Assembly (NCBI GenBank): GCA_030390025.1
Contig: CM059432.1
Location: 27,282,001-27,346,000 of the forward strand
Length of the DNA stretch: 64,000 nt
Source of the DNA: Squalus acanthias
Lineage: Eukaryota
Direction: 5' to 3'
The notes beneath the pieces were generated by a model. It was not told the origin of the DNA. It searched no databases and saw only the letters and a program-made list of their open reading frames with translations. The translations under genes were made by a program, and so were the position numbers. Positions 7,149 through 60,989 of the stretch are shown piece by piece; the stretch's first letter is position 1, and the number at the start of each line of letters is the position of its first letter.

Positions 7149-7639
7149 AGTCCAGGTATGAAGGAACATTACTGAAGGGGAAGCACCAAATAAGGTAAAG
7201 TGGCAAAGAGGACCCAATAGGGGAGAACAAGGGACTTGGGCGGAACTCATTAATGTGTAGATAGGCTATGATGTTTAGTTTTTAGTACCTGAAGTGGTGC
7301 CTGGTGTAATATCTGAAGGGTATCCAAATTTGAAGAGCATGTGACTACGCTTGGTTGTACTCTGCTTGTGTAATTTTTCTTCATGCCAAGCTTAATAAAG
7401 GCAAAACAAGAAATCTCCAGCATCGGAAGTAACGAATAATTCAAAATGTATCCTCTCCAAAGTTTACATGTCCTTCCTAAAGTGTGGTGCCCAAAATTAG
7501 ACACAATACTCCAGCTGGGGCCGAACTAGTGTTTTATATAGGTTTAGCATAACTTCCTGACTTTTGCACTCTATGGCTCTATTTATAAAATTGAGAGGTC
7601 GCACAACACCAGGTTATAGTCCAACAGTTTTATTTGAAA

Positions 7640-7677
7640 TCACAAGCTTTCGGAGCTATCACTCCTTCCTCAGGTGA
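7640..7677 (-). ncRNA. Minimal type I hammerhead ribozyme
   Basis: rc: TCAC-CTGAGGA-A-GGAG(TGATAG)CTCC-GAAAGCTT-GTGA. Confidence 0.75.
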
Positions 7678-8503
7678 AGTAAATTGGATACAGAATCGCC
7701 AGAGCATATATAGATGGAAAAAAAAGCATGTGTACTTTACAATTGCAGACCAATAAATTAAATCATCCTGACTATCTGCCGAGGTGTGATAAAGTTAATT
7801 AAGTCAGCCAGGAAGGTACCACATCAAAAGACATAGCAAGATACAACTGAGACAATGAGGTGTAGTCGCAGGGGTTCCAACGTGTCAAAAGCTGCCGTCT
7901 GTATGTAAAACGAAAAGCTTTAAAAAAAATTTACTTTTTTACTGGGAAAATTTTTACTTTTTTACTGGGAATCACATCTGTGAACAAGCTAACGACGACT
8001 CGAGTCCGGATCACGTCATGTATCGTGACATAAACCCAAGATCCCGATTGAGACCGTCTTCATGAGTGCGGAACTTGGCTATCAGTTTCTGCTCGATGAT
8101 TTCCAAGTTCCGCACTCATGAAGACGGTCTCAATCGGGATCTTGGGTTTATGTCACGATACATGACGTGATCCGGACTCGAGTCGTCGTTAGCTTGTTCA
8201 CAGATGTGATTCCCAGTAAAAAAGTAAAAATTTTCCCAGTAAAAAAGTAAATTTTTTTTAAAGCTTTTCGTTTTACATACAGACGGCAGCTTTTGACACG
8301 TTGGAACCCCTGCGACTACACCTCATTGTCTCAGTTGTATCTTGCTATGTCTTTTGATGTGGTACCTTCCTGGCTGACTTAATTAACTTTATCACACCTC
8401 GGCAGATAGTCAGGATGATTTAATTTATTGGTCTGCAATTGTAAAGTACACATGCTTTTTTTTCCATCTATATATGCTCTGGCGATTCTGTATCCAATTT
8501 ACT

Positions 8504-8541
8504 TCACCTGAGGAAGGAGTGATAGCTCCGAAAGCTTGTGA
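8504..8541 (+). ncRNA. Minimal type I hammerhead ribozyme
   Basis: Stem I TCAC/GTGA, core CTGAGGA...GAAA, stem II GGAG/CTCC, palindromic AAGCTT in place of stem III. Confidence 0.75.
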
Positions 8542-9696
8542 TTTCAAATAAAACTGTTGGACTATAACCTGGTGTTGTGCGACCTCTCAATTTTGTCCAC
8601 CCCAGTCCAACACCGGCATCTCCGCATCATGACCTCTATTTATAAAGCCCAGCTTCCATATGCTTTATTAACTGCTTTGTTAACCTATCCTGCCACCTTC
8701 AAAGATTTGTGCACAAGCACCTCCATGTCTCTCTCTTCTTGCAGCCCCTTTAAAATTGTACCATTTAGCACATATTCTCTCTCCTCATTCTTCCTACCAA
8801 AATGTATCCCCTCACAATTTTCTGCGCTGAATTTCATCTGCCATGTTTCCATCCATTCCACCTCTTGAAGTCTATTACTACCTTCCTCACTGTTTACTAC
8901 ACTTCCAAGTTTTGTGCCATCTGCAAATTTCGACATTGTGCTTTGTACCCCCAAGTCCAAGTCATTAATGTATATCAAAAACAGCCATGTTCCTAGTACT
9001 TAACCGTAGGACATGCCAAAACACCCATTCACCACAACTCTGTTTTCCATCCCTTAGCCAATTTTGTATCCACACAGCCCCTTTATTCCCGTGGGCTTCA
9101 ATTTTGTTGACAAGTCTATTATGTGGTACTTTATCAAATGCCTTTTGAAAGTCAATATACACATCAACCGCACTACCCTCATCCACCCTTTCCATTACTT
9201 CATCAAAGCACTCAATCAAGTTAGTCCAACACAATTTGCGTTTAACAAATCCATGCTGGCTTTGATTTATTAACCTATATTTTTCCAAGTGCCAGTTAAT
9301 TTTGTCCCAAATTAGTGTCTCTAAAAGTTTCCCCACATTAGGCTGATTGGCCTGTAATTGCCGGATTTATCTCTCTCCCCATTTTTGAACAGGGTTGTAA
9401 CATTTTCAATCCTCCAAACCTCTGCCACCACTCCCATATCAAAGGAGGATTGGAAGATTGGAAGATTGTGGCCAGAGCCTTCGCAACTTCCCTCAGGAAA
9501 CTAGGATGCATACCATCCGGACCAGGTGACTTTTCTACTATGAGCGCTGTCAATCTTTTTAGTACCTCCTCTTTATCTATTTTTTCCCTATCCAATTTCT
9601 CTACCACCTCCTCTGTTACTGTGACATTGGCAGCATCCTTTTCTTTAATGAAGACAGATGTATCAGATATATTAATGTGCAGAGGAGATTTACTAG

Positions 9697-14502: not shown

Positions 14503-16752
14503 ATAAACTTAAAAACTTAACAAAAGCACTCACCTGCAACTCACCAATGAGCGCTCTCCCTCTAGTAATGGGCTATGAACTACTCAGCAGAAATACACTT
14601 AAAACTGAACAAAAAACTTAACAGAAAATACCCACCAGCTACTCACCAATCAGCTCCCCTCTGACCACCTCACTTCTGAATTCTGACGTCACTCCTGTGC
14701 TGAGTTCCTCTCGCTGACTCTGTGCCTCTCACAGGTCCGCCGCTCAGCTCTGTTCCAAAGAAAACAACCCCAGCCTATCCAATCTTTCCTCATAGCTAAA
14801 ATTCTCCAGTCCTGGCAACATCCTCGTAAATCTCCTCTGTACCCTCCCTAGCAATAGCAACTGTTGAAAGGGAGTTGGATAAATACTTGAAGTGAAACAT
14901 TTGCAGAGCTGTGGGGAAAGAGCAGAGGGGTGGGTCTAATTGGATGGCTCTTTCAAAGAGTTTACAAAGCTCTTTCACAATCACGATAGGCCAAGTGGCC
15001 TCCTCTGTGCTGTATCATTCTATGATTCTATGACCTCTAGTCTATATGGCTGAGGTACTCACTGGATGAACTCACTGATCCATGGTTGGAAGTGGGGAGA
15101 GAAGGGGAATGGTGAGACAAGTTTGCAAGCTTCCTTGAAAGCTGTTTATGCCTCAAACTGCATCCATCCTCCTCCACCCATTTTTTCAACCCTTCCTGCA
15201 CTGACTCTTGAGCAATGCAACATAGAAGCATAGAAATTTATGGCACAGAAGGAGGCTATTCGACCCATCGTGTCCGTGCCGGCTGAAAAAGAGCTATCCC
15301 CTAATCCCACTTTTCAGCTCTTGGTCAATAGCTTTGTAGGTTATGGCACTTCAAGTGCATATCGAAGTACTTTTTAAATGTGATGAGGGTTTCTGCCTCT
15401 ACCACCCTTTCAGGCAGTGAGTTCCAGACCCCTCCACACTCTGGGTGAAAAAGTTCTCCTCAACTCCCCTCTAATGCTTCTACCAATTATTTTAAATCTA
15501 TACCCCTGGTTATTGACTTCTCTGCTAGAGGAAATAGGCCCTTCCTATCCACTCTATCTAGGCCCCTCATAATTTTATACATCTCAATCAAGTCTCCCCT
15601 CAGTCTCCTCTGTTCCAAAGAAAACAACCCCAGCCTATCCAATCTTTCCTCATAGCTAAAATTCTCCAGTCCTGGCAACATCCTCGTAAATCTCCTCTGT
15701 ACCCTCCCTAGTGCAATCACATCTTTCCTGTAAAGTGATGACCAGAACTGTACACAGTGCATTAGGTGTGGCCTAACGAGTGTTTTATACAGTTCAAGCA
15801 TAACCTCCCTGCTCTTGTATTCTATGACTCAGCTAATAAAAGAAAGTATCCCGTATGCCTGTTCTGCTACCTTCAGGGATCTGTGGACATGCACTCCAAG
15901 GTCCCTCTGTTCCTCTACACTTCTCAGTATCCTACCATTTATTGTGTAGCTCCTTGCCTTGTTAGCCCTCCCCAAATGCATTACCTCACATTTCTCTGGA
16001 TTGAATTCCATTTGCCACTTTTCTGCCCAGTTGACCAGTCCATTGATATTTTCCTGCAGTCTACATCTTTCTTCCTCACTATCAACCACACGACCAATTT
16101 TTACATCATCTGCAAACTTCTTAATCATTAAAGTCTAAATCATTGATGTATACCACAAAAAGCAAGGATCTATTACTGAGCCCTGCGGAACCCCACTGGA
16201 AACAGCCTTCCAGTCACAAAAACATCCATTGACCATTACCCTTTGCTTCCTGCCACTGAGCCAATTTTGGATGCAACTTGCCACTTTCCCTTGGATCCCA
16301 TGGGCTTTTACTTTTCTGACCAGTCTGCCATGTGGGACTTTGTCAAAAGCCTTGCTAAAATCCATGTAGACTACATCAAACGGACTATCCTCATCAACCC
16401 TACTTGTTACCTCCTCAGAACATTCAATCAAGTTAGTCAGACATGACCTTCCCTTAACAAATCCATGCTGACTGTCCTTGATTAATCCGTGCCTTTCTAA
16501 ATGACGATTAATACTGTCGCTCAGAATTTTTTCTAACAATTTGCCCACCACCGAGGTTAGGCTGACTGGTCTGTAATTACTCGGTCTATCCCGTTCTCCC
16601 TTTTTAAACAACAATACAACGTTAGCAGTCCTCCAGTCCTCTGGCACCACACCTGTAGTGGTCATGATGCGGAGATGCCGGTGTTGGACTGGGGTGGACA
16701 AAATTGAGAGGTCGCACAACACCAGGTTATAGTCCAACAGTTTTATTTGAAA

Positions 16753-16790
16753 TCACAAGCTTTCGGAGCTATCACTCCTTCCTCAGGTGA
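16753..16790 (-). ncRNA. Minimal hammerhead ribozyme
   Basis: Same motif as 8504-8541. Confidence 0.75.
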
Positions 16791-18254
16791 AGTAAATTGG
16801 ATACAGAATCGCCAGAGCATATATAGATGGAAAAAAAAGCATGTGTACTTTACAATTGCAGACCAATAAATTAAATCATCCTGACTATCTGCCGAGGTGT
16901 GATAAAGTTAATTAAGTCAGCCAGGAAGGTACCACATCAAAAGACATAGCAAGATACAACTGAGACAATGAGGTGTAGTCGCAGGGGTTCCAACGTGTCA
17001 AAAGCTGCCGTCTGTATGTAAAACGAAAAGCTTTAAAAAAAATTTACTTTTTTACTGGGAAAATTTTTACTTTTTTACTGGGAATCACATCTGTGAACAA
17101 GCTAACGACGACTCGAGTCCGGATCACGTCATGTATCGTGACATAAACCCAAGATCCCGATTGAGACCGTCTTCATGAGTTCGGAACTTGGCTATCAGTT
17201 TCTGCTCGATGATTTTGCGTTGTCGTGTGTTTCTAAGGTTGCCTTGGAGAACGCTTACCCGCAGATCCGAGGCTGAATGTCCTTGACTGCTGAAGTGTTC
17301 CCCGACTGGGAGGTAACAATCCTGCCTGGCGATTGTTGCGCGGTGCTCGTTCATACGTTGTCTCAGTGTCTGCATGGTCTCGCCGATGTACCATGCCGCG
17401 GTGCATTCTTTCCTGCAACGTATGAGGTAGACAACGTTGGCCGAGTCACATGAGTATGTACCATGTACCTGGTGGGTAGTGTCCTCACGTGTGATGGTGG
17501 TATCTGTGTTGATGATCTGGCATGTCTTGCAGAGTTTGCCATGGCAGGGTTGTGTGGTGTCGTGGTCGCTGTTATCCTGAAAGCTGGGTAATTTGCTGCG
17601 AACGATGGTACTTCTGAGGTTAGGCGGCTGTTTGAAGGCAAGTAGTGGAGGCGTGGGGATGGCCTTAGCGAGGTGTTTGTCGTCATCGATGACATGTTGA
17701 AGGCTGCGAAGAACATGTCGTAGTTTCTCCGCTCCGGGGAAGTACTGGACGACGTAGGGTACCCTGTTGGTTGTGTCCCGTGTTTGCCTTCTGAGGAGGT
17801 CTATGCGATTTTTCGCTGTGGCCCGTCGGAACTGTCGATCGATGAGTCGAGCGTCATATCCCGTTCTTACGAGGGCGTTTTTCAGCGGGATCTTGGGTTT
17901 ATGTCACGATACATGACGTGATCCGGACTCGAGTCGTCGTTAGCTTGTTCACAGATGTGATTCCCAGTAAAAAAGTAAAAATTTTCCCAGTAAAAAAGTA
18001 AATTTTTTTTAAAGCTTTTCGTTTTACATACAGACGGCAGCTTTTGACACGTTGGAACCCCTGCGACTACACCTCATTGTCTCAGTTGTATCTTGCTATG
18101 TCTTTTGATGTGGTACCTTCCTGGCTGACTTAATTAACTTTATCACACCTCGGCAGATAGTCAGGATGATTTAATTTATTGGTCTGCAATTGTAAAGTAC
18201 ACATGCTTTTTTTTCCATCTATATATGCTCTGGCGATTCTGAATCCAATTTACT

Positions 18255-18292
18255 TCACCTGAGGAAGGAGTGATAGCTCCGAAAGCTTGTGA
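18255..18292 (+). ncRNA. Minimal hammerhead ribozyme
   Basis: Same motif as 8504-8541. Confidence 0.75.
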
Positions 18293-19328
18293 TTTCAAAT
18301 AAAACTGTTGGACTATAACCTGGTGTTGTGCGACCTCTCAATTTTGACCACACCTGTAGCCAGAGAAGGTTGAAAAATGATGGTCAGATCCTCCGCCATT
18401 TCCTCCCTTGCTTCTCTTAACAGCCTGGGATACATTTCATCCTAGCCTGGCAATTTATCAACTTTCAAAGATGCTAAACCCCTTAATATTTCCTCTTGTG
18501 AAGGAATAAGCCATATAACCTATTCAGAAAAATACACCATTCTATGAAAGAATTCTGGCCTTATTAAAACATGACAAACTGGGTTTGGAAATCTAGAAAC
18601 CTAACTATGAAAAAGCTGTGAAAGCATTCTGGCTATAGCGATAAGATAGTTGTTGACACTGAATCAATAACCTTATTGAAACAGAAGGTTAAAGGCTCCG
18701 GTAGGCTGAACCTTTTGGAATGAGACAATGGTTCACCCTGGATAAGGTGTTCTAATTTACACTTCGTAAAGAAGCACATAAAAGTAAGAAACATCTACAT
18801 AGAACATAGAACATAGAACAGTACAGCACAGTACAGGCCCTTCGGCCCTCGATGTTGTGCCGAGCATTGTCCGAAACCAAGATCAAGCTATCCCACTCCC
18901 TATCATTCTGGTGTGCTCCATGTGCTTATCCAATAACCGCTTGAAAGTTCCTAAAGTGTCCGACTCCACTATCACAGCAGGCAGTCCATTCCACACCCCA
19001 ACCACTCTCTGAGTAAAGAATCTACCTCGGACATCCCTTCTATATCTCCCCCCATGCACCTTATAGTTATGGCCCCTTGTAACAGCTACATCCACCCGAG
19101 GAAATACTCTCAGAACATCCACTCTATCCATCCCCCTCATCATCTTATAAACCTCTATTAAGTCGCCTCTCATCCTCCTCCGCTCTAAAGAGAAAAGCCC
19201 TAGCTCCCTCAATCTTTCCTCATAAGACCTCCCCCCCAAACCAGGCAGCATCCTGGTAAATCTCCTTTGCACTCTTTCCAATGCTTCCACGTCCTTCCTA
19301 TAGTGAGGTGACCAGAACTGCACACAAT

Positions 19329-20071: not shown

Positions 20072-20660
20072 AATATTCCAAATGTGGTCTCACCAAGGTC
20101 CTGTACAGTTACAGTATAACCTCACGGTTCTTAAACTCAAACCCCTTGTTAATAAACGCAAATACACTATAGGCCTTCTTTACTGCTCTATCCACTTGAG
20201 TGGCAACCTTCAGAGATCTGTGGATATGAACCCCCAGATCCCTCTGTTCCTCCACGTTCCTCAGAACCCTGCCGTTGACCCTGTAATCCTTATTCAAATT
20301 TGCCCTACCAAAATGAATCACCTCGCACTTATCAGGGTTAAATTCCATCTGCCATTTTTCGGCCCAGCTCTGCATCCTATCAATGTCTCTTTGCAGCCTA
20401 CAACAGCCCTCCACCTCATCCACTACTCCACCAATCTTGGTGTCATCAGCAAATTTACTGATCCACCCTTCAGTCCCCTCCTCCAAGTCATTGATAAAAA
20501 TCACAAACAGCAGAGGACCCAGCACCGACCCCTGTGGCACACCGCTGGTAACTGGTCTCCAGTCCGAAAATGTTCCATCCACCACCACCCTCTGCCTTCT
20601 ATGAGATAAAATTGAGAGGTCGCACAACACCAGGTTATAGTCCAACAGTTTTATTTGAAA

Positions 20661-20698
20661 TCACAAGCTTTCGGAACTATCGCTCCTTCCTCAGGTGA
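20661..20698 (-). ncRNA. Minimal hammerhead ribozyme (variant)
   Basis: Stem II GGAG(CGATAG)TTCC with a G-U wobble. Confidence 0.7.
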
Positions 20699-21395
20699 AG
20701 TAAATTGGATACAGAATCGTCAGAGCATATATAGATGGAAAAAAAAGCATGTGTACTTTACAATTGCAGACCAATAAATTAAATCATCCTGACTATCTGC
20801 CGAGGTGTGATAAAGTTAATTAAGTCAGCCAGGAAGGTACCACATCAAAAGACATAGCAAGATACAACTGAGACAATGAGGTGAAGTCGCAGGGGTTCTA
20901 ACGTGTCAAAAGCTGCCGTCTGTATGTAAAACGAAAAGCTTTAAAAAAAAAAAAATTTTACTTTTTTACTGGGAAAATTTTTACTTTTTTACTGGGAATC
21001 ACATCTGTGAACAAGCTAACGACGACTCGAGTCCGGATCACGTCATGTATCGTGACATAAACCCAAGATCCCGATTGAGACCGTCTTCATGAGTGCAGAA
21101 CTTGGCTATCAGTTTCTGCTCGATGATTTTGCGTTGTCGTGTGTTTCTAAGGTTGCCTTGGAGAACGCTTACCCGCAGATCCGAGGCTGAATGTCCTTGA
21201 CTGCTGAAGTGTTCCCCGACTGGGAGGTAACAATCCTGCCTGGCGATTGTTGCGCGGTGCTCGTTCATACGTTGTCTCAGTGTCTGCATGGTCTCGCCGA
21301 TGTACCATGATTTAATTTATTGGTCTGCAATTGTAAAGTACACATGCTTTTTTTTCCATCTATATATGCTCTGACGATTCTGTATCCAATTTACT

Positions 21396-21433
21396 TCACC
21401 TGAGGAAGGAGCGATAGTTCCGAAAGCTTGTGA
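21396..21433 (+). ncRNA. Minimal hammerhead ribozyme (variant)
   Basis: Same variant as 20661-20698. Confidence 0.7.
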
Positions 21434-22152
21434 TTTCAAATAAAACTGTTGGACTATAACCTGGTGTTGTGCGACCTCTCAATTCTATGAGATAGCCAGT
21501 TACTTATCCAATCGGCCAAATTTCCCTCTATCCCACAACTCCTTACTTTCTTCATGAGACGACCATGGGGAACCTTATCAAACGCCTTACTAAAATCCAT
21601 GTATACGACATCAACTGCTCTACCTTCATCTACACACTTAGTTACCTCCTCAAAGAATTCAATCAAATTTATTAGGCAAGACTTACCCTTCACGAATCCG
21701 TGTTGACTATACCGGATTAAGTTGCCCCTTTCCAAATGGTCATAAAGCCGATCCCTCAGGACCTTTTCCATTATCTTACCAACCACCGAAGTAAGACTAA
21801 CCAGCCTACAATTACCAGGGTCATTCCTATTTCCTTTCTTGAAGAGAGGAACAACATTCGCCACTCTCCAGTCCTCTGGCACCATCCCTGTGGACAGTGA
21901 GGACCCAAAGATCAAAGCCAAAGGCTCTGCAATCTTCTCCCTTGCCTCCCAAAGAATCCTAGGATATATCCCATCTGGCCCAGGGGACTTATCAACCCTC
22001 AGGTTCTTCAAAATTGCTAAAACATCTTCCCTCAGAACATCTACCTCCTCCAGCCTATCCACCTTTATCACACTCTCATCTTCAAAATCCCTTCACTCTC
22101 TCACTATGTTTATCTCATCTAGTATTTCACACTCCTCCTCCTTAATTACAAT

Positions 22153-31950: not shown

Positions 31951-31993
31951 TGGATACCTTGTGCAAAATATAGGCATAGAAAATCTGGCATGC

Positions 31994-33248
31994 CGGGTCG
32001 GTGCGATCGGTGACCGGGTCGGGGGGGATTGGTGACCGGGTCGGGGGGATCCGTGATCGGGTTGGGGGGATCGGTGTCTGGGTCGGGGGGATCGGTGACT
32101 GGGTCGGGGGGATCCGTGTCTGGGTCGGGGGGATCCATGACTGGGTCGGCGCGATCGGTGACCGGACCAGGGGGATCGGTGATCGTGTCGGTGCGAACGG
32201 AGACCGGTGACCGGTGACCGGGTTGGGGGGGATCGGTGACAGGGTCGGGCGGATCGGTGATCGTGTCGGGGAGATCGGTGACCGGGTCGGGGGGATCGGT
32301 GACCGGGTCAGTGCGATCGGTGACTGGGTCGGGGGGATCGGTGACTGGGTCGGGGGGATCGGTGACCGGGTCGGTGGGATCGGTGACCGTGTCGGGGGGA
32401 TCGGTGACAGGGTCGGTGCGAACGGAGACCGGTGACCGGGTTGGGGGGGATCGGTGACAGGGTCGGGCGGATCGGTGACCGTGTCGGGGGGATCGGTGAC
32501 AGGGTCGGGGGGATCGGTGACCGGGTCGATGGGATCAGTGACCGGGTCGGGGGGATCGGTGACCGGGTCGGTGCGAACGGAGACCGGTGACCGTGTCGGG
32601 GGGATCGGTGACCGGGTCGGTGCGATCGGTGACCGGGTCGGGGGGATCGGTGACCGGGTCGGTGGGATCGGTGACTGTGTCGGGGGGATCGGTGACAGGG
32701 TCGGGGGGATCGGTGACCGGGTCGATGGGATCGGTGACCGGGTCGGGGGGATCGGTGACTGGGTCAGGGGGATCGGTGACCGGGTCGGGGGGATTGGTGA
32801 CCTGGTCGGTGGGATCGGTGACCGGGTCGGTGCGAACGGTGACCTGGTCGGGGGGGTTCGGTGACCGGGTCGGGGGGGATCGGTGACCGGGTCGGGGGAT
32901 CGGTGACCGGGTCGGTGGGATCGGTGACCGTGTCGGGGGGATCGGTGACAGGGTCGGTGCGAACGGAGACCGGTGACCGGGTTGGGGGGGATCGGTGACA
33001 GGGTCGGGCGGATCGGTGACCGTGTCGGGGGGATCGGTGACAGGGTCGGGGGGATCGGTGACCGGGTCGATGGGATCAGTGACCGGGTCGGGGGGATCGG
33101 TGACCGGGTCGGTGCGAACGGAGACCGGTGACCGGGTTGGGGGGGATTGGTGACAGGGTCGGGCGGATCGGTGACCGGGTCGAAGGGATCGGTGACCGGG
33201 TCGGTGCAATCGGTGACCGGGTCGGAGGGATTGGTTGATGGGTCGGGG
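31994..33248. repeat. G-rich 21-bp minisatellite (~60 units)
   Basis: Consensus GGGTCGGGGGGATCGGTGACC with variant units. Confidence 0.97.
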
Positions 33249-37330: not shown

Positions 37331-37897
37331 AACTCTGTCCTACAAACTTTATTTATTGTAATGTAATGCGCATGCCAATCTTTGGGGTAAAAATTCACTT
37401 GGTTGCGCCTCCCGTTAGCGCCTTAAGAGGGCGCTAATGGGGCGTTAAGCCGCTAACGCCCGGGCGCAGCGCTGTTTACGCCGCTCGAGAACTTAACTTG
37501 AGATTGTGCGGCGGCGCTAAAACTTACCGCTGCGACCACCTGCGCGCGCAGATTGTGACGTCATTCCATGGTGCAACGCCCTTGGGGCGCCCCGGAGCGG
37601 AAATTGAGTGGCGCCCCCTGCCTTACCGCCTGGCGCTTCCAACGACCGGAAGACTGGAACGTTATCAATCGGTGTGGGGCTGGGGGGGGCGCTATTTAAA
37701 GGGGGCCTCTTCCTGTCTTTTTCTGTGGTCGACATTTATGCACCACTCGTTCTGAGAGAGAGAGAGAGATTCGGAGAGAGAGAGAGAGAGAGACTTCTAC
37801 ATTGACTCAACGCTTTGTGAGGTAGTTTTGCCTAGTTCATCCTAACTTTGTTGCTACTTTAGTTGCTGTACCTCATTACTTTTCTGGCAAAGAGAAT

Positions 37898-39058
37898 ATG
37901 GGGGCTGCAATGATTGGGGGCGTCGTCCTGCTCCAGCTGAATCGGAGGATACTGAGACGCAGACAGAGAGTGGCAATGATGGCCAGACGGAGGAGGGCCA
38001 TCAGGCACATGTACAGGAGAGCTTACCCTCCCAGGGTATATCGTGAACAGCTCTCCTACATCCATATGTCCGAGTAGCTGTGTTTGCGAAGGCTGCGATT
38101 CAGCAAGGAGGTGGTCACTGAGCTCTGCCACCTGCTGCAGCCAGATCTGCAGCCTCAGCTGAGGTCCAGGACGTCTCTGTCGGTGGCAGTGAAGGTCACA
38201 GTGGCTTTGAACTTCTACGCCACTGGCTCATTCCAAGCTGCTGTTGGGGACCTCGCCAATATCTCCCAGTTTGCGGTGCATCGCTGCATCCGGCAGGTCA
38301 CCAATGCCCTCTTCAGAAGGAGACGAGACTTCATCTCTTTCCCTATGACCCCAGACAAGCAGCGTGACCGTGCTCTGGGCTTTGCGAGGGTAGCGGGCTT
38401 CCCCATGGTGCAGGGCGCCATTGACTGCACGCATGTGGCTTTGCGTGCTCCACGAGAGAATGCAGAGGAATTCAGGAACAGAAAGGGGTTCCATTCCTTG
38501 AATGTGCAGTTGGTCTGTGACCACAGACAGGTGATACTCGCTGTCAATGCCCACTATCCGGGCAGCTGCCACGATGCTTTCATCCTGCACCAGACTACTG
38601 TGGCAGAAGTTTTCGAGGCACCGCATCAGCCAGTTGGTTGGCTTCTGGGGGACAAGGGGTACGCATTGAGCACCTGGCTGATGACACCGCTCCGTACGCC
38701 AAACACCCCTGCTGAGCTGCGGTACAATGAAAGCCATCAAGCAACCAGGAACATTATTGAGCGCACAATCGGCGTGCTGAAACAACGGTTCCGCTGTCTG
38801 GACCATTCCGGAGGAGCCTTGCAGTACTCGCCTGAGCAAGTTTCGAACTTCGTAGTCGTGTGCTGCATGTTGCACAACATGGCAATCCTCAGGACCCAGC
38901 CAATGCCACCAGGCCTTGTAGCACCACCAGTGGAGGAGGAGGAAGAGGAGGAAGAGGACGAGGACGATGATCATCAGCAGCACCAAGGCAGGAGGGCGGC
39001 CCACAATGGTCAAACTGCAAGGGCCGTCCGTCAACGACTAATAGCAAGCCGCTTCTAG
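37898..39058 (+). pseudogene. Harbinger transposase with a single premature stop
   Basis: GAG>TAG at 38075-38077; otherwise open, with [33 protein letters not shown]. Confidence 0.93.
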
Positions 39059-39352
39059 GGCCCCTGCCATTGCTACAAACACTAATCAACCCAGCACGCA
39101 ACCCCTAAGCCGGCCAAGGCACCAATAATTCCAACCACCAGCCATGTATATTTTCAATACAGAAACTTATTTATTTTACAAACTCTGTGTGTGTCAATTC
39201 CTCATGACAAACTCATAGAAATAAACACAAAAAAACAGTCAATAACATAACTGGTTCTCACAACCTGGAGATAATGTCCAAAACACTAAACAAAAGTTGG
39301 ACCATGAACCTCGGCCTTTAATAAAAAAATGACCAGCATTTTGGCACACCTC

Positions 39353-41230
39353 CTACTTTTTGCCCTTCGAGGGTGATCTCCTTCCCTTGCGCACTTCCCC
39401 CCTTCTAACCCTACTGCTCCTCCGTAATGGGACCTCAATGGCTGCAGCAAGGCTGGTGGAAGGCTGCTGCTCGTCAGACCCTGACACTGCAGATGCCCCT
39501 GAAGGACGGCCTCGACCACTTCTGGGCCTGGAGGGCCCGGCTGCAGACTGCACCAACTCTGCATTGGCGGCAGCAGTCTGTCCTACAGGCGGTGGCAAGT
39601 GCAGTGGAGAAGTGACAGTGTTGGCAGCAGGAATGCTGTCATCGTGAGAGAGGCCAGCAACTCCCTGCTCGCCCGACACACTGGCACTCCCACGGGGCAG
39701 CACTTCAGCATCCGGAGCAATTTGCCGGAGAACAGATTGCTGGCCTGCTGCGGCGCGGTGACAGCCCCGGGGACATGTGCACGAACCATCGAGGTTGGCA
39801 GCAGTCTGTGCTCGCGTGGCCTCCATCTGAGTCTGTATGAGAGCAGTCAGAGGTGGGATCACGGCAGCCAGTGACTGAATTGCAGCACTAAGCGTTAGTG
39901 TGGCATCCGCCTGTGCTACAGCGAAGTGCTCCACACTCCTTGCCAGTGACTCAATGCAATCGGGCACCCTTCCCACTGCACCCATGAGCTCAGTGTGCAT
40001 GCCCACCGCCTGGGTGTTCATTTCTGCAATCAGCCGCTCCTCCTCTGCGTCCATTGCAGTAGGAGTGTCTGGCATACTCTCCCTCTGGGGAGAAGGCCCC
40101 CGTTCTTCCCTACCCCCCCCCATGGCGTTGCTGCAGCCCGCTGGGTCCTGGAGCTTCACCATCATCAGCCCCTTCCCCCCTGCTCCCCTCCGGGGAAGGC
40201 GTGTTCCCAGTGTGGGCATGGGCTTCCTCGGGAGAGGGTGGCACTGATGCTCCGGCTTCCTCTTCCTCCTCAGCTGCAGCATTACTCCCAGTGGCAGCTT
40301 CAGGGCCCGTCTCCTCAGCTGGTGAATCACCATCTGAAAGCAGGGAGGTACAAGAGTGGCTTTAGCGTGAGGACAGGGTGGCAGTAAGGGAGGAATAAGT
40401 GCAGCGAGTTAGCAAGTTGGATTGAAAGTGTCAAAGGCTGGTATTGTGAGGGACAAGTGGAAGGACAGAGGACAAAAAGGTGATGACCTTACCATTGCTG
40501 TCCACAACGGGGTCGGCGTCTCCAGTGGCGACGGGACCGATCACCCGGCTTGCCACAATCCTGTGGACGCGCTCCTCCAGATCGCTGAGGGGTTGCAGCT
40601 GAAGCCGCCCTCCACCCGTCCGTTGCTGCTGTCTCCGATTATGAGCCAGCTTAGCCTGCAAGAAAAAGGACAGCATCTGAGTAAATATACAGCCATGGTC
40701 TTGCCTGATGTGCCTCCCATAGGTGAATAGCCCTTACAATATACAGCCATGGTCTTGCCTGATGTGCCTCCCATAGGTGAATAGCCCTTACAATATACAG
40801 CCATGGTCTTGCCTGATGTGCCTCCCATAGGTGAATAGCCCTTACTGTATGCAAAGTGTGGAATGTGTGTGTGTGTTTGATGAAAGGGCCATAGGTGTTG
40901 GATGAGTGTTGTGCATTGGGGTTTTAAGACCCTCTGGCCATAGAGTGAGGTTGAGATGGAGGGATGGAGAGGTATTGAGAAAAAGCCACTCACCCTGACG
41001 ACCCGAGTGAGGTCGTTGAACTTTTTGCGGCATTGAACATGGGTCCTGGGCACCATGCTCCTGGAGGAGACGCTCTGAGCCACCTCCCTCCACACTCTTC
41101 TGAACTCGCGTGGCAAAGGCCTCCTGCCACTCTCCGGGAACAGCATGCATCGTCTGCGCTCCACTGCGTCAACCAGAGCATCCAAGGCCCGCTCGGTGAA
41201 GCGATGAGCACGTTCTCTCACCCTCTCCAT
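39353..41230 (-). pseudogene. Harbinger Myb/SANT gene, frameshifted in exon 3
   Basis: Same splice sites as copy 1; C5 run expanded to C9 at ~40113-40121. Confidence 0.85.
40687..40848. repeat. 54-bp tandem repeat x3
   Basis: Same unit as 4411-4626; two units end CAAT instead of CTGT. Confidence 0.95.
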
Positions 41231-41649
41231 GCTTGGCAGCAAAATGGATTACAGGTCTCTCCAGGCTGAGATTCAAGGCTGCAATGAGCAGGGTGTGGCT
41301 GGGGAGCAAGTGGCCCCCCCCCGCTTTAAGAAGTGTCCGGCGCCAGTGTGTCTGTGTTCCCTCGCTAACTGGCAGCAGCTGCGCTGCGCTCGTGCGCTGA
41401 GTTAGCGCCTTACTCCCTGGCCTTTGCGCCTTAAGACAGGTGTGCAGCGCCTGCTTTAGCGCTCCACTCACCTCCCGGGGCGGTAAAAGTGAAGTTTCCT
41501 GTCAGTGCCGATAATTAGCGCCAGGCGCTAATATTTGCGTCCGGACGATATTTGCGCCCCAAATGGGGCGCGACCTAATTTCTACCCCAAATCTTTTATT
41601 ATCTGTCTTTGGATTTCGAAACTGTCTTTTTTTCATCCACAGACACAAG

Positions 41650-52244: not shown

Positions 52245-53490
52245 CATGGAACAGAGGAACAGAAGTAGGCCATTCAGCCCCTCAAGCCTGTTCCGCCATT
52301 CAATTAGATCCTGGCTGATCTGTACCTCAACTCCATCTGCCCGCCTTGGTTCTATACCCCATGATACACTTGCCTAACAAAAATGTATCAATCTCAGTTC
52401 TGAAATTTTCAATTTATCTCGGCTCAACAGCTTTTTGGGTTAGAGAGTTCCAGATTTCCACTACCCTGTTTGTAAGAAGTGCTTCTTGACATCACCCCTG
52501 AATGGCCTAGCTCTAATTTTAAGGCTGGACACCCCCACCAGAGGAAATATTTTCTCTCTACTTACCCTATCAACTCCTTTAATCATCTTAAACACCTCAA
52601 TTACATCTCAGTTATTCAAGAGAATATGGGGGAAAAATTCGGTTGCTTTGCGCCTCCTGTTAGCCTCCTGTTAGCAAAGCAACTTACGCCCGGGCGCGGC
52701 GCCGCCAATACCTCCCGTAAAATTCAGCGGGAGGTTAGCGGCGGCGCTAACTGTTAGCACCCGCGGCGCGGCGCCACCGGCGATGACCTCATCTCCTTTC
52801 GCAGAGCCCCACTTGTGCCCCGGCCGCAATCTTTGGTAGCGCCCCCGACTTACCGCCGGACGCTATGTCCGACAGGGTCAGTGGGCCAACTTGCGGCCGG
52901 GGCGGCGCTATTTAAAGGCGAGGTGTCGGGCGGCCATTTTTGTTGCTGGCAACCTGCCAACAACTGCTTCCACTGCTGTCCCAGGCCTCCTTATCCGCGC
53001 CCCCGCAGAGTGCCGGCTGCACTCCATGAGCCCGACACTTCTCGAGTGCCAGGCTCTTTTGCTGGCACTCCCGATCCCCGGGGGCCCAGCTGGGCCCTGG
53101 GTCGCGCTGCGCAAGGCCCCTCCCTTTTAAGAAGGGGAGGAAGGCCTGCAATACCACGGTGTGATGTGCCGCAGCACGATATTCCCTCGCAGCGCCCCAA
53201 GAGGGAGGCGGGGCGCTTCCAGTAGCTACCACTCAATTTCGGTCGCGGGGGCGCTAATTTTTCCAGGGGCCCGGCGAAGTTAGCGCCCCAAAGGGGGCAC
53301 AACTCAATTTTTTCCCCTATAAGTCTAGTCTTAGCAACCTTTCCTCAAAATGTAACCATTTTAGCCCTGGTATCATTCTGGTGAATCTGCGCTGCACCCC
53401 CTCCAAGGCCAATATATACTTCCTGAGGTGCGGTGCCCAGAGCTGAATGCAGTACTCTAAATGAGGTCTAACCAGAGCTTTATATAACTT
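52245..53490 (-). mobile_element. CR1 3' fragment interrupted by a MITE
   Basis: Similar to 6172-6760. Confidence 0.8.
52628..53317 (+). mobile_element. Harbinger-family MITE (690 bp)
   Basis: TIR GGGG(G/A)AAAAATT; TSD TAT; both subtermini resemble the 4.2-kb elements. Confidence 0.92.
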
Positions 53491-56400
53491 TATGTGCCTT
53501 TAAGAAGATGGTGGTAGGCCTTCTTCTTGAACCGCTGCAGTCCCTGGGGTGAAAGCATTCCCACAATGCTGTTAGGTAGGGAGTTGCTCTTAGTGCTGTT
53601 CTAGTGCCGCCTGCTCCTTGCAAGCAGGGTCACACAACCAACGGCAACACCAAGGGCAGACTTGCTGGATTCTCTGAAATAGGAGCCCGGGAAGACCCAG
53701 TTAAAAAGAACACAGATCTTCCCAGGATGTTTGCATTAGAAAATCTGGTAAGTCTACTTTAGCATTGCCACTGGCTCAAATTGCGTTGAAATTGCAGATA
53801 TTTCTTAATTTGCACAGTTGACAAACATACTGATCTTGAATTTCCGCGGGGATTGTTCAGATCTCCAGAGGTTCCGCCTATCTCCCATCAAAGTTATGGA
53901 GGGAGATTCACACATCCCCAGTTGAAATTCAGACCTGAACCAATGTCTCACTGGCTGTCCATATCACTCTACCCTAAACAATACTGTCAGCTGATAAGTG
54001 GCAGGTAACATTCACGCCAAAGAAGTGGCAGGCAATGACTATCTCCAACAAGCGAGAGTCTAACCACCTCCCCTTGACATTCAATGGCATTACCATCGCT
54101 GAATCCCCCACCATTAACATCCTGGGGGGTCACCATTGACCAGAAACTTAACTGGACCAGCCACATAAATACTGTGGCAACCAGAGCAGGTCAGAGGCTA
54201 GGTATTCTGCGGCGAGTGTCTCCATTCCTGACTCCCCAAAGCCTTTCCACCATCTACAAGGCATAAGTCAGGAGTGTGATGGGATACTCTCCACTTGCCT
54301 GGATGAGTGCAGCTCCACCAACACTCAAGAAGCGCGGCACCATCCAGGACAAAGCAGCCCGCTTGTTTGGCACCCCATCCACCACCTTAAACATTCACTC
54401 CCTCCACCACCGGCGTACCGTGGCTGCAGTGTGTACCGTCTACAAGATGCACTGCAGCAACTCGCCAAGGCTTCTTCAGCAGCACCTCCCAAACCCATGG
54501 CCTCTTCCACCTAGAAGGACGAGGGCAGCAGGTGCATGGGAACACCACGACCTCCAAGTTCCCCTCCAAGTCACACACCATCCTGACTTAGAAGTATATC
54601 GCCGTTCCTTCATCGTCGCTGGGTCAAAATCCTGGAACTCCCTCCCTAACAGCACTGTTGTACTTTCACCGCACAGACTGCAGCGATTCAAGAAGGTGAC
54701 TCACCACCACCTTCTCAAGGGCAATTAGGGATGGGCAATAAATGCTGGCCTTGCCGGTGACGCCCAGATCCCATAAAAAACAATATAAAAAAAAGCCTGC
54801 ACCTCATAAAGAGGCAAGATGTTTTGGTCGTCAATATTCGCTAAAGAATTACCCCTACTCCATGACTAGCTGAAATGGATGCCATAATTGGTGTCTCAAT
54901 ATAAGTGGCAATTTTAACCTCAGGCCTCATTTACTGAGGGTGCCAAGTTGCAGCTCACCGGTTACAGGAGGCCGAGCAATCGGCCAGCTCCATATTGAGC
55001 TGGCTGACAGGTGGTGCTGGGATGGTGGTGGGGGTGGGGGGGGAAGGGTGATCCCAGGGCAGGCCTCAGATTGGCCGGAAGGCTAGATTTTTTTCTGGGA
55101 GTACAGGAGGAGCTCCAGCGTTCCTTTTAAGGACCCTTTTAAGGCCGCTGAGCGCCTGGTACAAATGTGTAGAACATGCACGGCATACGCTTATGCCCAT
55201 TGGTACCTCAGACTAGCAATCAGGGACCTATGTACGTCATTGGACCCCGATTTGCATATTACAAGTGGCTTCCTGCCTGAAACAGGCTGGCGCTCCAGCT
55301 GCCCATCTCAGGCCCCTACCCGAGCTGACTGGAGCCAGAGCGCCAGGGTAAACAGGGCAGTAAGTAACTGTTGGGGTAAAAGAGAAGTCTTCCCTCCTCT
55401 CAAGCGAACCCCCTGATATAAGGGGTCAACGCTTGCCCTATAGCGACCACAAATTCACCAGACGGACATCTTGGATAAGTTTCACGATCTTTATTCAAGC
55501 ATATGCAGGGGGGACGTCTCAGTCTCAGCTGCCTGAGAAAGGATGCTTCTACCGAGTAGCAAATACATACAGCAATTATACCTAACTCGGGGCATGCACC
55601 CCTCGTGCATGACCCTTCTATGATCATTGATTGCTGTATTGTTTATTAGAGGGGCTGCATCCATTCGTTGCCTCTTATCAGAAAGGTTGCTGAATGGTTC
55701 ACAGAGACCCATCTCTACAGCATGAGCATGCTAAGCACCCCATAACCAGAGCAGAAAGAAACAAGTTAGCTCCAGTCAGCTCGGGTAGGGGCCTGAGATG
55801 GGCAGCTGGAGCGCCAGCCTGTTTCAGGCAGGAAGCCACTTGTAATATGCAAATCGGGGTCCAATGACGTACATAGGTCCCTGATTGCTAGACTGAGGTA
55901 CCAATGGGCATAAGCGTATGCCGTGCATGTTCTACACATTTGTACCAGGCGCTCAGCGGCCTTAAAAGGGTCCTTAAAAGGAATGCTGGAGCTCCTCCTG
56001 TACTCCCAGAAAAAAATCTAGCCTGCCGGCCAATCTGAGGCCCGCCCTGGGATCACCTTTCCCCCCCCACCCCCACCACCATCCCAGCACCACCTGTTAG
56101 CCAGCTCAATATGGAGCTGGCCGATTGCTCGGCCTCCTGTAACCGGTGAGCTGCAACTTGGCACCCTCAGTAAATGAGGCCTGAGGTTAAAATTGCCACT
56201 TATATTGAGACACCAATTATGGCATCCATTTCAGCTAGTCATGGAGTAGAGGTAATTCTTTAGCGAATATTGACGACCAAAACATCTTGCCTCTTTATGA
56301 GGTGCAGGCTTTTTTTTATATTGTTTTTTATGGGATCTGGGCATCGCCGGCAAGGCCAGCATTTATTGCCCATCCCTAATTGACCTTGAGAAGGTGGTGG

Positions 56401-58434
56401 TGAGTCACCTTCTTAAATCACTGCAGTCTGTGTGGTGAAAGTACAACAGTGCTGTTAGGGAGGGAGTTCCAGGATTTTGACCTAGCGACGATGAAGGAAC
56501 GGCGATATACTTCTAAGTCAGGATGGTGTGTGACTTGGAGGGGAACTTGGAGGTGGTGGTGTTCCCATGCACCTGCTGCCCTCGTCCTTCTAGGTGGAAG
56601 AGGCCGTGAGTTTGGGAGGTGCTGCCGAAGAAGCCTTGGTGAGTTGCTGCAGTGCATCTTGTAGACGGTACACACTGCAGCCACGGTACGCCGGTGGTGG
56701 AGGGAGTGAATGTTTAAGGTGGTGGATGGGGTGCCAAACAAGCGGGCTGCTTTGTCCTGGATGGTGTCGCGCTTCTTGAGTGTTGTTGGAGCTGCACTCA
56801 TCCAGGCAAGTGGAGAGTATCCCATCACACTCCTGACTTATGCCTTGTAGATGGTGGAAAGGCTTTGGGGAGTCAGGAAGGGAGACACTCGCCGCAGAAT
56901 ACCTAGCCTCTGACCTGCTCTGGTTGCCACAGTATTTATGTGGCTGGTCCAGTTAAGTTTCTGGTCAATGGTGACCCCCAGGATGTTAATGGTGGGGGAT
57001 TCGGCGATGGTAATGCCATTGAATGTCAAGGGGAGGTGATTAGACTCTCGCTTGTTGGAGATAGTCATTGCCTGGCACTTCTTTGGCATGAATGTTACCT
57101 GCCACTTATCAGCTGACAGTATTGTTTAGGGTAGAGTGATATGGACAGCCAGTGAGACATTGGTTCAGGTCTGAATTTCAACTGGGGATGTGTGAATCTC
57201 CCTCCATAACTTTGATGGGAGATAGGCGGAACCTCTGGAGATCTGAACAATCCCCACGGAAATTCAAGATCAGTATGTTTGTCAACTGTGCAAATTAAGA
57301 AATATCTGCAATTTCAACGCAATTTGAGCCAGTGGCAATGCTAAAGTAGACTTACCAGATTTTCTAATGCAAACATCCTGGGAAGATCTGTGTTTTTTTT
57401 AACTGGGTCTTCCCAGGCTCCTATTTCAGAGAATCCAGCAAGTCTGCCCTTGGTGTTGCCGTTGGCTGTGTGACCCTGCTTGCAAGGAGCAGGCGGCACT
57501 AGAACAGCACTAAGTGCAACTCCCTACCTAACAGCATTGTGGGAATGCTTTCACCCCAGGGACTGCAGCGGTTCAAGAAGAAGGCCTACCACCATCTTCT
57601 TAAAGGCACATAAAGTCATATAAAGCTCTGGTTAGACCTCATTTAGAGTACTGCATTCAGCTCTGGGCACCGCACCTCAGGAAGTATATATTGGCCTTGG
57701 AGGGGGTGCAGCGCAGATTCACCAGAATGATACCAGGGCTAAATGGTTAAATTTTGAGGAAAGGTTGCTAAGACTAGACTTATAGGGCAAAAAATTGAGT
57801 CGTGCCCCCTTTGGGGCGCTAACTTTGCCGGGCCCCTGGAAAAATTAGCGCCCCCGCGACCGAAATTGAGTGGTAGCTACTGGAAGCGCCCCGCCTCCCT
57901 CTTGGGGCGCTGCGAGGGAATATCGTGGTGCTACGCGCTGTGGCACGTCACGCCGTGGTATTGCAGGCCTTCCTCCCCTTCTTAAAAGGGAGGGGCCTTA
58001 TGCAGCGCGACCCAGGGCCCAGCTGGGCCCCCGGGGATCGGGAGTGCCAGCAAAAGAGCCTGGCACTCGAGAAGTGTCGGGCTCATGGAGTGCAGCCGGC
58101 ACTCTGCGGGGGCGCGGATAAGGAGGCCTGGGACAGCAGTGGAAGCAGTTGCTGGCAGGTTGCCAGCAACAAAAATGGCCGCCCGACACCTCGCCTTTAA
58201 ATAGCGCCGCCCCGGCCGCAGGTAGGCCCACTGACCCTGTCGGACATAGCGTCCGGCGGTAAGTCGGGGGCGCTACCAAAGATCGCGGCCGGGGCGCAAG
58301 TGGGACTCTGCGAAAGGAGATGAGGTCATTGCCGGTGGCGCAGCGCTGCGGGGTGCTAACAGTTAGCGCCGCCGCTAACCTCCCGCTGAATTTTACGGGA
58401 GGTATTGGCGGCGCCACGCCCGGGCGCAAGTTGC
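52679..58434. repeat. ~2.66-kb inverted duplication (52679-55335 vs 55769-58434)
   Basis: Arms are reverse complements with scattered substitutions and small indels; 433-bp spacer. Confidence 0.95.
53988..54790 (+). mobile_element. LINE family X 3' fragment (mirrored at 56315-57116)
   Basis: Matches 166-960. Confidence 0.88.
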
Positions 58435-58722
58435 CTCCAGTCAGCTCGGGTAGGGGCCTGAGATGGGCAGCTGGAGCGCCAGCCTGTTTCAGGCAGGAAG
58501 CCACTTGTAATATGCAAATCGGGGTCCAATGACGTACATAGGTCCCTGATTGCTAGTCTGAGGTACCAATGGGCATAAGCGTATGCCGTGCATGTTCTAC
58601 ACATTTGTACCAGGCGCTCAGCGGCCTTAAAAGGGTCCTTAAAAGGAACGCTGGAGCTCCTCCTGTACTCCCAGAAAAAAATCTAGCCTGCCAGCCAATC
58701 TGAGGCCCGCCCTGGGATCACC
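58435..58722. repeat. Direct re-copy of 55770-56057 (rc of 55047-55334)
   Basis: Restarts at CTCCAGTCAGCTCGGG and ends CCCTGGGATCACC. Confidence 0.95.
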
Positions 58723-58783
58723 TGACGCCCTCCGCCACTTTAACAGTTTCCAGTTTCCTGGCCCCAACCGCCTCCTTTTCACC

Positions 58784-60147
58784 ATGGACGTACAATCCCT
58801 CTACACCTCCATCCCCCACCAGGATGGCCTGAGGGCGCTCCGCTTCTTCCTTGAACAGAGGCCCAACCAGTCCCCATCCACCGCCACCCTCCTCCGCCTG
58901 GCTGAACTTGTTCTCACATTGAACAACTTCTCCTTTGACTCCACTCATTTCCTCCAAATCAAAGGTGTTGCTATGGGAACCCGCATGGGTCCTAGCTATG
59001 CCTGCCTTTTCGTGGGATATGTGGAACACTCTTTGTTCCAGTCCTACTCGGGTCCCCTCCCTCACCTCTTTTTCCGGTACATTGACGACTGTATCGGTGC
59101 CGTTTCCTGCTCTCGCCCTGAACTGGACAATTTCATTCACTTTGCCTCCAATTTCCACCCTTCCCTCACCTTCACATGGTCCATCTCCGACTCTTCCCTC
59201 CCCTTCCTCGACTTCTCCGTCTCCATCTCTGGGGATAGGTTATTGACCAACATTCACTACAAGCCCACTGACTCCCACAGCTACCTGGACTACACTTCCT
59301 CCCACCCCGCCTCCTGTAAGGACTCTATTCCCTTCTCCCAGTTTCTCCGTCTCCGCCGCATCTGCTCCGACGATGCCACCTTCCATACCAGTGCTTCCGA
59401 CATGTCTTCCTTTTTCCTCAACCGAGGATTCCCCTCTACCGTGGTCAACACGGCCCTCGACCGTGTCCGTTCCATCTCCCGCACTTCTGCCCTCACCCCG
59501 GCCCCTCCCTCCCGGAACCACGATAGAGTTCCCCTTGTCCTCACCTTTCACCCCACCAGCCTCCACATTCAACGGATCATCCTCCGCCATTTCCGCCACC
59601 TCCAACGTGATCCCACCACCAAACGTATCTTCCGCTCACCTCCCCTTTCAGCATTCCGTAGGGACCGCTCCCTCCGAGACACCCTAGTCCACTCCTCTAT
59701 CACCCCCAGCACACTTCCCCTTCACCCGGCACCTTCCCGTGCAAGCGCAGGAGATGCAACACCTGCCCTTATACATCCCCCCTTCCCACTCTCCAGGGCC
59801 CCAAACACCCCTTCCAGGTGAAACAGCGATTTACTTGTACTTCTTGCAATCTAGTATACTGTATTCGCTGCTCACGATGTGGTCTCCTCTACATTGGGGA
59901 AACCAAACACAGATTGGGTGACCGCTTTGCGGAACACCTCCGTTCAGTCCGGAAGGGTGACCCCGAGCTTCCGGTCGCTTGTCATTTTAATTCACCCCTC
60001 CACGCTCACTCAGACCTCACCGTCCTCGGCCTCTTGCATTGTTCCACGGAAGCGCAGCGTAAGCTCCAGGAACAGCACCTCATCTTCCGTTTAGGCACTT
60101 TACAGCCCTCTGGACTCAATATCGAGTTCAACAATTTCAGATCATAA
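58784..60147 (+). pseudogene. Penelope RT + GIY-YIG endonuclease, frameshifted near 59720
   Basis: DVQSLYTSIP, GVAMGT, FRYIDD, YKPT; NLVYCIRCSRCGLLYIGET...RFAEH...GLN. Confidence 0.93.
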
Positions 60148-60407
60148 CCCCGGCCCCTACCACATAAGTATACATTTTATCCACTCTTTTGGTCCGTGCC
60201 TTTTTCCTTTTTTTCTCTCTCTCCCCCCACGGCAGCTGTCTCTGATTCTGCCAGCATTTCACACCTTACCTTTTGTTTCTCAACCTGTCCCATTACCATC
60301 TCGTCTTGCCTTGAGCATCTCTCAATGTCTCTACTCACTAAAGACCATCCCTTTTGTTCTTTTATTCCTCCCCCTTGCATTTTTATCTGTTTATTTCTTG
60401 CTCTCTC

Positions 60408-60443
60408 AGTTCCGACGAAGGGTTTCGACCTGAAACGTTAACT
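60408..60443 (+). ncRNA. Minimal hammerhead ribozyme, core mutated
   Basis: AGTT-CCGACGA-AGG(GTTTCGA)CCT-GAAACGTT-AACT; CUGA changed to CCGA. Confidence 0.55.
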
Positions 60444-60989
60444 CTCTTTCTCTCTCCACGGATGTTGCCTGGCCTGCTGAGTTTTTCCAGCGTTTTCTGT
60501 TGTTATTTCGGATTTCCAGCATCCGCAGTATTTTGCTATCCTATTAGAATCTTGTTTGTCCTGCCTTATCTATCGTTCTACATTCCTAAGCAAGGACAGG
60601 AGACAAGCTTACTAGCCTTATTGTTTCTACTCACTTTAATTCTAGAAATCCTTTTAACTTTAATTCTAGATATCCCTTTGGCCCCTTACAGTAACCCAAC
60701 GGCATTTTAGTGAGTTATCATCAGCCGTTTGGTGCCGACAACTTAGTGTAGAACATAGAATATAGGAGGTGGTCAAATGAGAAAACTCCCAGTGTTTGTT
60801 GCATTTGTACAACTTCGATAAAGTTTATGGGTTAAATTTTATTTTGTCTTTTCGAGAGAAAAAAATCAGGTCAAATGTTTGACCACCCACCTTGTTCACT
60901 GGGGTGGAACCGAGAGTTAGACAATCATAACCGTGCCCTCAGGTTAGGGAAGGTCATTTCGACCATTGTGCTGGCTTTTCTGATCACTC

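Follow-up and report, generated by a model that had tools for sequence, protein, structure and literature searches.

An inverted local duplication and a Penelope-like element inside one solo LTR of Squalus acanthias, likely the record of two events

We analyzed a 64,000-nucleotide stretch of Squalus acanthias DNA (hereafter the window; CM059432.1, C8:27282001-27346000, within a 3.7-Gb assembly), which is rich in pieces of long interspersed nuclear elements (LINEs), Penelope elements, and DNA transposons. In this window, a solo long terminal repeat (LTR) is interrupted by an inverted copy of 2.66 kb of nearby DNA (copy 1), a second inverted copy of the start of the same template (copy 2), and a 5′-truncated Penelope-like element (the focal Penelope). 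The initial annotation had read the whole insert as a single Penelope-driven event. The two arms of the duplication have diverged more than the Penelope has from its sisters (0.98% per arm vs. 0.33%), and on balance we consider two events likely: an older fold-back templated insertion and, later, a Penelope insertion beside it. The duplication is likely older than the Penelope and hence was probably not made by it. On this reading, the locus preserves, in easily legible form, the traces of two known repair processes superimposed at a single position.

Layout and junction letters of the interrupted LTR

Self-comparison of the window reproduced the anatomy described in the initial annotation (Table 1). 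Positions 52679-55335 matched 58434-55769 at 97.6% over 2668 columns, 55047-55337 matched 58722-58432 at 98.6%, and 55762-56071 and 58427-58736 formed a further matching pair. Both copied segments start at the same point (55335 and 55334), across a spacer of 433 bp (55336-55768), and CAAGTT precedes both starts (55762 and 58427), as had been claimed. The GTAAC target duplication of the LTR was likewise found at both ends. No gene was seen in the source arm.

Elsewhere in the genome, 39 matches to the LTR were found at 84-96%, and several of them are paired at distances of 5.5-8.8 kb. The paired copies surround pol, with domains of reverse transcriptase (RT), RNase H, and integrase between them (such matches came from 4 of the 8 frames scanned), and the focal copy, with its TG...CA ends and short target duplication, has the features of a solo LTR. 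Judged from the tRNA-primer-like and purine-tract flanks of paired copies, the element reads on the minus strand; we take the primer to be tRNA-Ser.

In all 29 other copies fetched, the LTR match ends at or before 55734. The next 31 bp at the focal locus (55735-55765) are the LTR's own next 31 bp in reverse, bracketed by TAA and TTA, a micro-inversion that had been overlooked in the initial annotation. It aligned with LTR copy L009 at 35 of 39 letters (score 62 vs. 17 for the forward control), and its junction is particular to the present locus (one match in the junction search). After the inverted piece, uninterrupted close LTR copies read CCTC (10 of 10), then ATT (9), and then CTAT. The CCTC was found at 58434-58437, at the far end of copy 1, and the LTR resumes as CTATTAG at 60541; this comparison with intact copies, suggested earlier as a check for target deletion, accounted for the LTR to within three letters. 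In three of the closest LTR copies (L002, L007, and L009), another Penelope-type repeat has inserted into the same 120 bp of AT-rich LTR sequence. A recurrent insertion hotspot at this LTR position was rejected: the tail-plus-target pattern gave 26 matches, of which the 10 inspected lay outside such LTRs and reflect the tail's own letters, and the short-end version of the pattern gave no matches.

The 11-mers at 55762-55772 (CAAGTTAGCTC) and 58427-58437 (CAAGTTGCCTC) agree at 9 of 11 positions, and the repeated CAAGTT reads as part of a putative imperfect 11-bp target duplication around copy 1. The claim that no target duplication surrounds the insert thus stands for one of the Penelope type (none of at least 6 bp), but copy 1 itself is flanked by the imperfect 11-mer repeat. 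Along copy 1, the departure context is matched at 7 of 8 letters only by the copy's end, CAAGTTGC; within 10 kb, three further sites of this quality lie farther out. For the second 11-mer as primer, 11 kb searched on both strands hold four 9-of-11 sites, among them 55762. At the 5′ junction of the Penelope there is CT microhomology (58722-58723), and the T at 58723 is the letter of copy 1 and differs from the source.

From these segments and letters, together with the mutation counts and family screen given below, we infer the order of the steps, the strands, and the enzymes as follows. Step 1 (age approximately 1% per arm) would have been fold-back repair or a replication switch within the solo LTR, in which a strand ending in CTC, just past the 31-bp micro-inversion, folded back over 433 bp and primed on GAG(C) at 55332-55335. 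This end would have copied 2657 nt leftwards, returned with its new end (CAAGTTGC) through the 7-of-8 match to the departure context, and resumed the LTR at CTC, leaving the imperfect 11-bp target duplication and no LTR loss. In step 2 (age approximately 0.35%), the Penelope protein would have cut the adjacent ATT, a tail-like site, and 1.8 kb would have been reverse-transcribed; the other end, which carried the second 11-mer, may have annealed to the first (9/11), been extended by 285 nt with copy 1 as template, and been linked to the cDNA by way of CT.

These two steps would explain the additional C of junction 2, the four otherwise missing LTR letters, the repeated start, and the copy-1 T at 58723, and annealing between the two 11-mers would let both copies start at one point with no circle required. 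The 433-bp spacer, the 2-4 nt match at 55335-55332, and the 7-of-8 return are those of a fold-back templated insertion. The earlier suggestion of template switching on local DNA was supported. Hairpins as stop or start signals were rejected: both end points fall in predicted stems, but folding was no better than in shuffled sequences (z = -0.82 and -0.90). An RNA template ending (5′ or 3′) at 55335 was also unsupported: inspection by eye showed neither splice nor poly(A) marks, and the LTR promoter would start approximately 200 bp away.

Table 1. Coordinates of the interrupted LTR and its parts (positions in the window)
Feature	Positions	Strand	Remarks
Source arm	52679..55335	+	miniature inverted-repeat transposable element (MITE)-like repeat (52628-53317), LINE fragments, older repeats
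LTR target duplication, left copy, GTAAC	55364..55368	.	
Solo LTR, left part	55369..55734	-	RT, two RNase H-type domains, and integrase in paired copies
Micro-inversion of LTR, 31 bp, between TAA (55732-55734) and TTA (55766-55768)	55735..55765	-	from comparison of LTR copies
Departure 11-mer CAAGTTAGCTC, junction 1	55762..55772	+	last 2-4 letters common to source at 55335-55332
Copy 1, inverted copy of 55335-52679	55769..58434	-	52 substitutions in 2655 columns, 4 gaps
Return 11-mer CAAGTTGCCTC, junction 2	58427..58437	+	bridged by contigs in X1 and X5
Copy 2, 288 bp, start of copy 1 again (direct to copy 1, inverted to source)	58435..58722	-	1 private letter
5′-truncated Penelope-like element: RT part, GIY-YIG, 3′ repeat with long tail	58723..60540	+	6 private substitutions, 1-bp and 11-bp deletions
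Solo LTR, right part	60541..60690	-	first letters match Penelope tail in register, 8/10 (ATT taken from other LTR copies)
LTR target duplication, right copy, GTAAC	60691..60695	.	

Ages of the duplication and of the Penelope

The difference of 0.98% per arm corresponds to 52 of 2655 columns, of which 24 are CpG transitions (the copy has lost 14 CpGs and the source 10). When polarized by family copies, 19 differences were copy-derived, 17 were source-derived, and 16 remained undecided. Because the changes are on both sides and split equally between the arms, they point to ageing rather than synthesis error, and error-prone synthesis was rejected as their source. The unique flank differs between samples at 1/328 and 1/337 positions (approximately 0.3%), so the homologue as template cannot supply the surplus arm divergence. 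The relatives compared differ by 2.5-7.5%, and their split is likely older than the duplication.

The focal Penelope differed from 29 sisters at 9 of 1818 positions; three of these differences are common to its subfamily and the other six are private (0.33%). It has two deletions, against four gaps in the arms; the 11-bp deletion in the 3′ part is shared with other copies, with edges that differ, and looks recurrent. The age of the subfamily was similar: 19 of 155 copies have two diagnostic letters in common and pool to 94/25,397 (0.37%). Faster decay in inverted repeats was ruled out for this Penelope family by its own-arm hairpins, which at 21 loci showed 83/12,273 differences (0.34% per arm). 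One rate for arms and Penelope fitted poorly (P = 0.0037; CpG only, 24 vs. 1, P = 0.004; jointly with the triplicated segment, P = 0.021). The comparison of arm and Penelope divergence, which had been set in advance as the refuting test of a single event, thus largely went against it.

Within the triplicated 288 bp, private letters numbered two in the source, two in copy 1 (55892 and 55984), and one in copy 2. The initial annotation had reported these counts and taken them as consistent with a single event; the counts stand, and the star-like pattern favors that conclusion (3.8:1), whereas the ages of arms and Penelope do not (the joint test above). At each of the five triplet sites, a 529-nt contig from sample X1 has the letter found in two of the three versions, at single-copy depth; such letters are those that collapsed copies would give, so the contig is uninformative on the fixation of the copy-1 private letters.

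Several observations count against two separate ages. At non-CpG sites alone (28 vs. 5, P = 0.15) the ages are not separated, and the age signal, being mostly CpG, could reflect methylation differences. The sister copies were picked by likeness to the focal Penelope, which biases them young; among Penelope copies of at least 1000 sites (n = 123), the median was 0.39% and eight were at 0.9% or more. Copy 2 carries neither of the copy-1 private letters, which gives the 3.8:1 for three copies of one age. At the return site, the source arm reads TAAGTTGC (6/8), and the letter found in the copy is favored by family copies by just 13 to 6. Among the contig pieces listed, none showed the duplication in an allele that lacks the Penelope. 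Two events also require the Penelope to have landed within 3-7 bp of an old junction, a coincidence that is softened only in part by the likeness of the target to the Penelope tail and by the fragility that the base of the stem may have in so long an inverted repeat. The duplication and the Penelope were not found to be of the same age, on evidence that is moderate and not decisive.

The Penelope family and other repeats of the window

The focal Penelope matched RVT_1 (E = 2.5e-5) and GIY-YIG (E = 1.5e-4), in each case narrowly below the Pfam cut-off. A full-length sister (L061) shows one open frame of 938 codons, one open reading frame (ORF) with RT and C-terminal GIY-YIG, and all 29 sisters extend 5′ of the focal start, as expected of a 5′ truncation. 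Long and short 3′ ends of the family lie approximately 35 bp apart. A search of 52600-60800 against Rfam gave no hammerhead match at E ≤ 1, and three weak matches at chance level only; a stretch near 60400-60440 looks by eye like a putative hammerhead core.

The family screen comprised 158 distinct loci fetched from genome searches (234 rows, from which partner arms and repeats were dropped), with a median 5′ flank of 6.8 kb. Across these loci we observed the pseudo-LTR, tandem, and inverted 5′-truncated arrangements of endonuclease-bearing Penelope-like elements, and the distance of approximately 35 bp between 3′ ends agrees with their optional tail of 30-40 bp. Truncated copies numbered 117, copies with their own inverted arm 32, and full or tandem copies 9; the earlier statement that an inverted arm made of the element's own 3′ end occurs in other copies was therefore borne out. 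Target duplications of at least 10 bp were present in 28 of the 32 two-armed and 41 of the 117 truncated copies, and their most common length was 14 (19/46, in the first 100 loci). The focal insertion departs from the canonical two-armed pattern, with host DNA at its 5′ end and no duplication of at least 6 bp. Between its target and the Penelope tail, 8 of 10 letters agree (with the ATT taken from other LTR copies), whereas 34 sister targets averaged 4.2 matches, with a maximum of 7.

An inverted host copy of at least 30 bp at 94% or more against the Penelope 5′ end was found at none of the 158 loci (upper bound approximately 2%), and exact inverted matches of at least 20 nt occurred at 2 of 158 junctions vs. 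4 of 790 control anchors. At one tandem Penelope (L128, G000:C1 near 176.12 Mb), a 28-nt perfect inverted host copy with a 34-nt spacer stands at the 5′ end, without a target duplication; from its sequence, this looks like a true miniature fold-back. The proposal that Penelope insertion is a general route to kilobase inverted duplications thus drew no support from the family beyond this one 28-nt case. Other candidates were rejected: the 1.2-kb inverted pair at L074 belongs to a young LINE family, at L215 and L219 the host sequence near the 5′ end is a common repeat, L123, with its terminal repeats, resembles a later insertion, the apparent host repeat of L143 is a satellite, and L231 retains its target duplication.

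Free 5′ ends in the family showed further irregularities. At L141 (oriented 6206-6798; G000:C17 near 67.37 Mb), a 43-bp internal Penelope piece is repeated approximately 14 times head to tail at approximately 99% identity, an array that resembles reiterative copying of one template. Three TTAGGG telomeric repeats abut the 5′ end of L064 (G000:C3256), without a target duplication, and telomere-type healing of a free end is possible there. At the free end of six loci (L068, L087, L104, L145, L154, and L159), the target or the element's own 3′ end is present in short copies, iterated or slipped. At L244 (oriented 7240-7535 vs. 774-1069), a direct local duplicate of 296 bp, 95.3% alike, ends exactly at the Penelope 5′ end; it is also older than its Penelope, and its family copies are approximately 80% alike. 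At L112 (oriented 757-892), a short copy of both insertion-site flanks lies 4.9 kb upstream, like an empty site.

Elsewhere in the window, 7587-8594, 16700-18357, and 20605-21488 are hairpin-shaped insertions of a second Penelope-type family, which had no similarity to the focal Penelope in the self-comparison. Two copies (94%) of one DNA transposon lie at 1099-5367 and 37381-41588; we take it to be Harbinger-like, presumably with transposase and Myb-like frames. A tandem array with a 14-bp unit occupies 31993-33248 and has long open frames on the minus strand.

Alternative origins and known systems

The alternative that comes closest, although we think it doubtful, is one event at the Penelope cut. 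The left end would fold back, copy 2.66 kb, re-prime, copy 288 nt, and join the cDNA that was primed by the right end; re-priming at the same site would follow from the end being CTC again, and the outcome would correspond to the second arm that is normally made from Penelope RNA, with DNA as the template instead. The whole insert does sit at one LTR point, with at most 3-7 bp unaccounted for, the triplet is star-like, and free ends in the family slip or re-prime (the iterated repeats of L068, L104, and L145, and the inverted host copy of L128); L1 breaks give foldbacks and templated insertions (PMC11702581). The Penelope, however, carries six changes where approximately 15-18 would be expected, and its subfamily is no older than the 0.37% given above. 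Host inversions of at least 30 bp are absent from all 158 sisters, matches of at least 20 nt are about as common at control anchors, and extra strand switches are needed to gain the CCTC. Moreover, most two-armed insertions (28/32) keep a target duplication of at least 10 bp, whereas the focal insertion has none. The age comparison weakens the earlier single-event claim. It is possible, on the same doubtful footing, that a Penelope cut can drive its second end to fold back and copy kilobases of adjacent host DNA with re-priming at one site, as a rare source of kilobase inverted duplications in the germ line, of which L128 would be the miniature. If true, a single event would show the fate of the second end of a Penelope cut when RNA priming fails; it would still be rare (under approximately 2%), and no gene is touched here. 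Two events would still give a templated insertion at a Penelope 5′ junction.

The remaining alternatives are less probable. One old event followed by gene conversion, in which a young sister overwrote the 1.8-kb Penelope and reset its clock, would do away with both the positional coincidence and the age gap, and hundreds of 99% identical donors exist in the genome; we consider it improbable, since full-length replacement by gene conversion is rare, no patch of older letters remains at either element end, and conversion alone does not explain the letters of junction 2. Approximately 1.1 turns around a 2.66-kb circle of 52679-55334, as the initial annotation had offered, fit the segment order if the circle was joined at junction 2, but entry must then fall within 1 nt of the circle's own junction, which is unexplained, and the 11-mer pair, the micro-inversion, and the age gap are left unexplained as well; 11-mer annealing suffices, and the circle, being unneeded, is very improbable. 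Least probable of all, and barely credible, is an assembly artefact (a fold-back chimera or merged haplotypes). Junction 58434/58435 is the only one bridged among the contig pieces listed, with no bridging piece there for junctions 58722 and 60540, but it is bridged in two samples of two studies (X1 over 58386-58511 with no differing letter, and X5 over 58398-58511 with one), and CpG-type decay is present on both arms.

We therefore return to two events, of kinds that are known, at a locus that is singular and lies in repeat DNA. A retrotransposon at a rearrangement junction need not be its cause, and an internal clock can tell. In the literature, of which subscription papers were covered in part, neither a host inverted duplication at a Penelope nor a templated insertion at a Penelope 5′ junction was found described.

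Fold-back templated inverted insertions at yeast breaks span 5 to just over 150 bp (PMC11724301), and in humans fold-back with a spacer, by way of a dicentric chromosome, is the accepted route to inverted duplications (PMC3907307). Common to these systems and the focal locus are a 3′ end that primes on its own strand through a short inverted match, a single-copy spacer, extension, displacement, and joining to the other end. Unlike them, the focal duplication is 2.66 kb long, was healed in place, is fixed in the germ line, and has a 7-of-8 return match. In the L1 report (bioRxiv 10.1101/2024.08.27.596794), 22 templated insertions occurred among approximately 3600, typically no more than 15 bp from the site and shorter than 250 bp, which is near the size of copy 2 and far below that of copy 1. 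As at those L1 5′ junctions (see also PMC11702581), local DNA stands in the junction of a 5′-truncated element, with microhomology joining and no target duplication; unlike in L1, copy 2 measures 285-288 bp, its template lies 2.66 kb away, and the element is a Penelope.

By architecture, on which the comparison rests, the family resembles canonical endonuclease-bearing elements of the Penelope/Poseidon type, the Poseidon label being a lead from PMC11167929: one ORF with RT and then GIY-YIG, and a pseudo-LTR (PMC11167929, PMC3846280, and PMC8557442). Shared as well are two classes of 3′ ends 30-40 bp apart, a frequent inverted 5′-truncated arm, and ATT-type cuts; ATT is the cut motif preferred in vitro by an anole relative (PMC11167929). 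The focal copy differs from that type in two ways: its 5′ end adjoins host DNA rather than an arm of its own, and it lacks a target duplication. Template-switch micro-inversions are widespread (PMC7954356), and the 31-bp inversion, bracketed by a 3-bp inverted repeat, is like those short-range switches; unlike them, it adjoins a kilobase switch and may belong to it.

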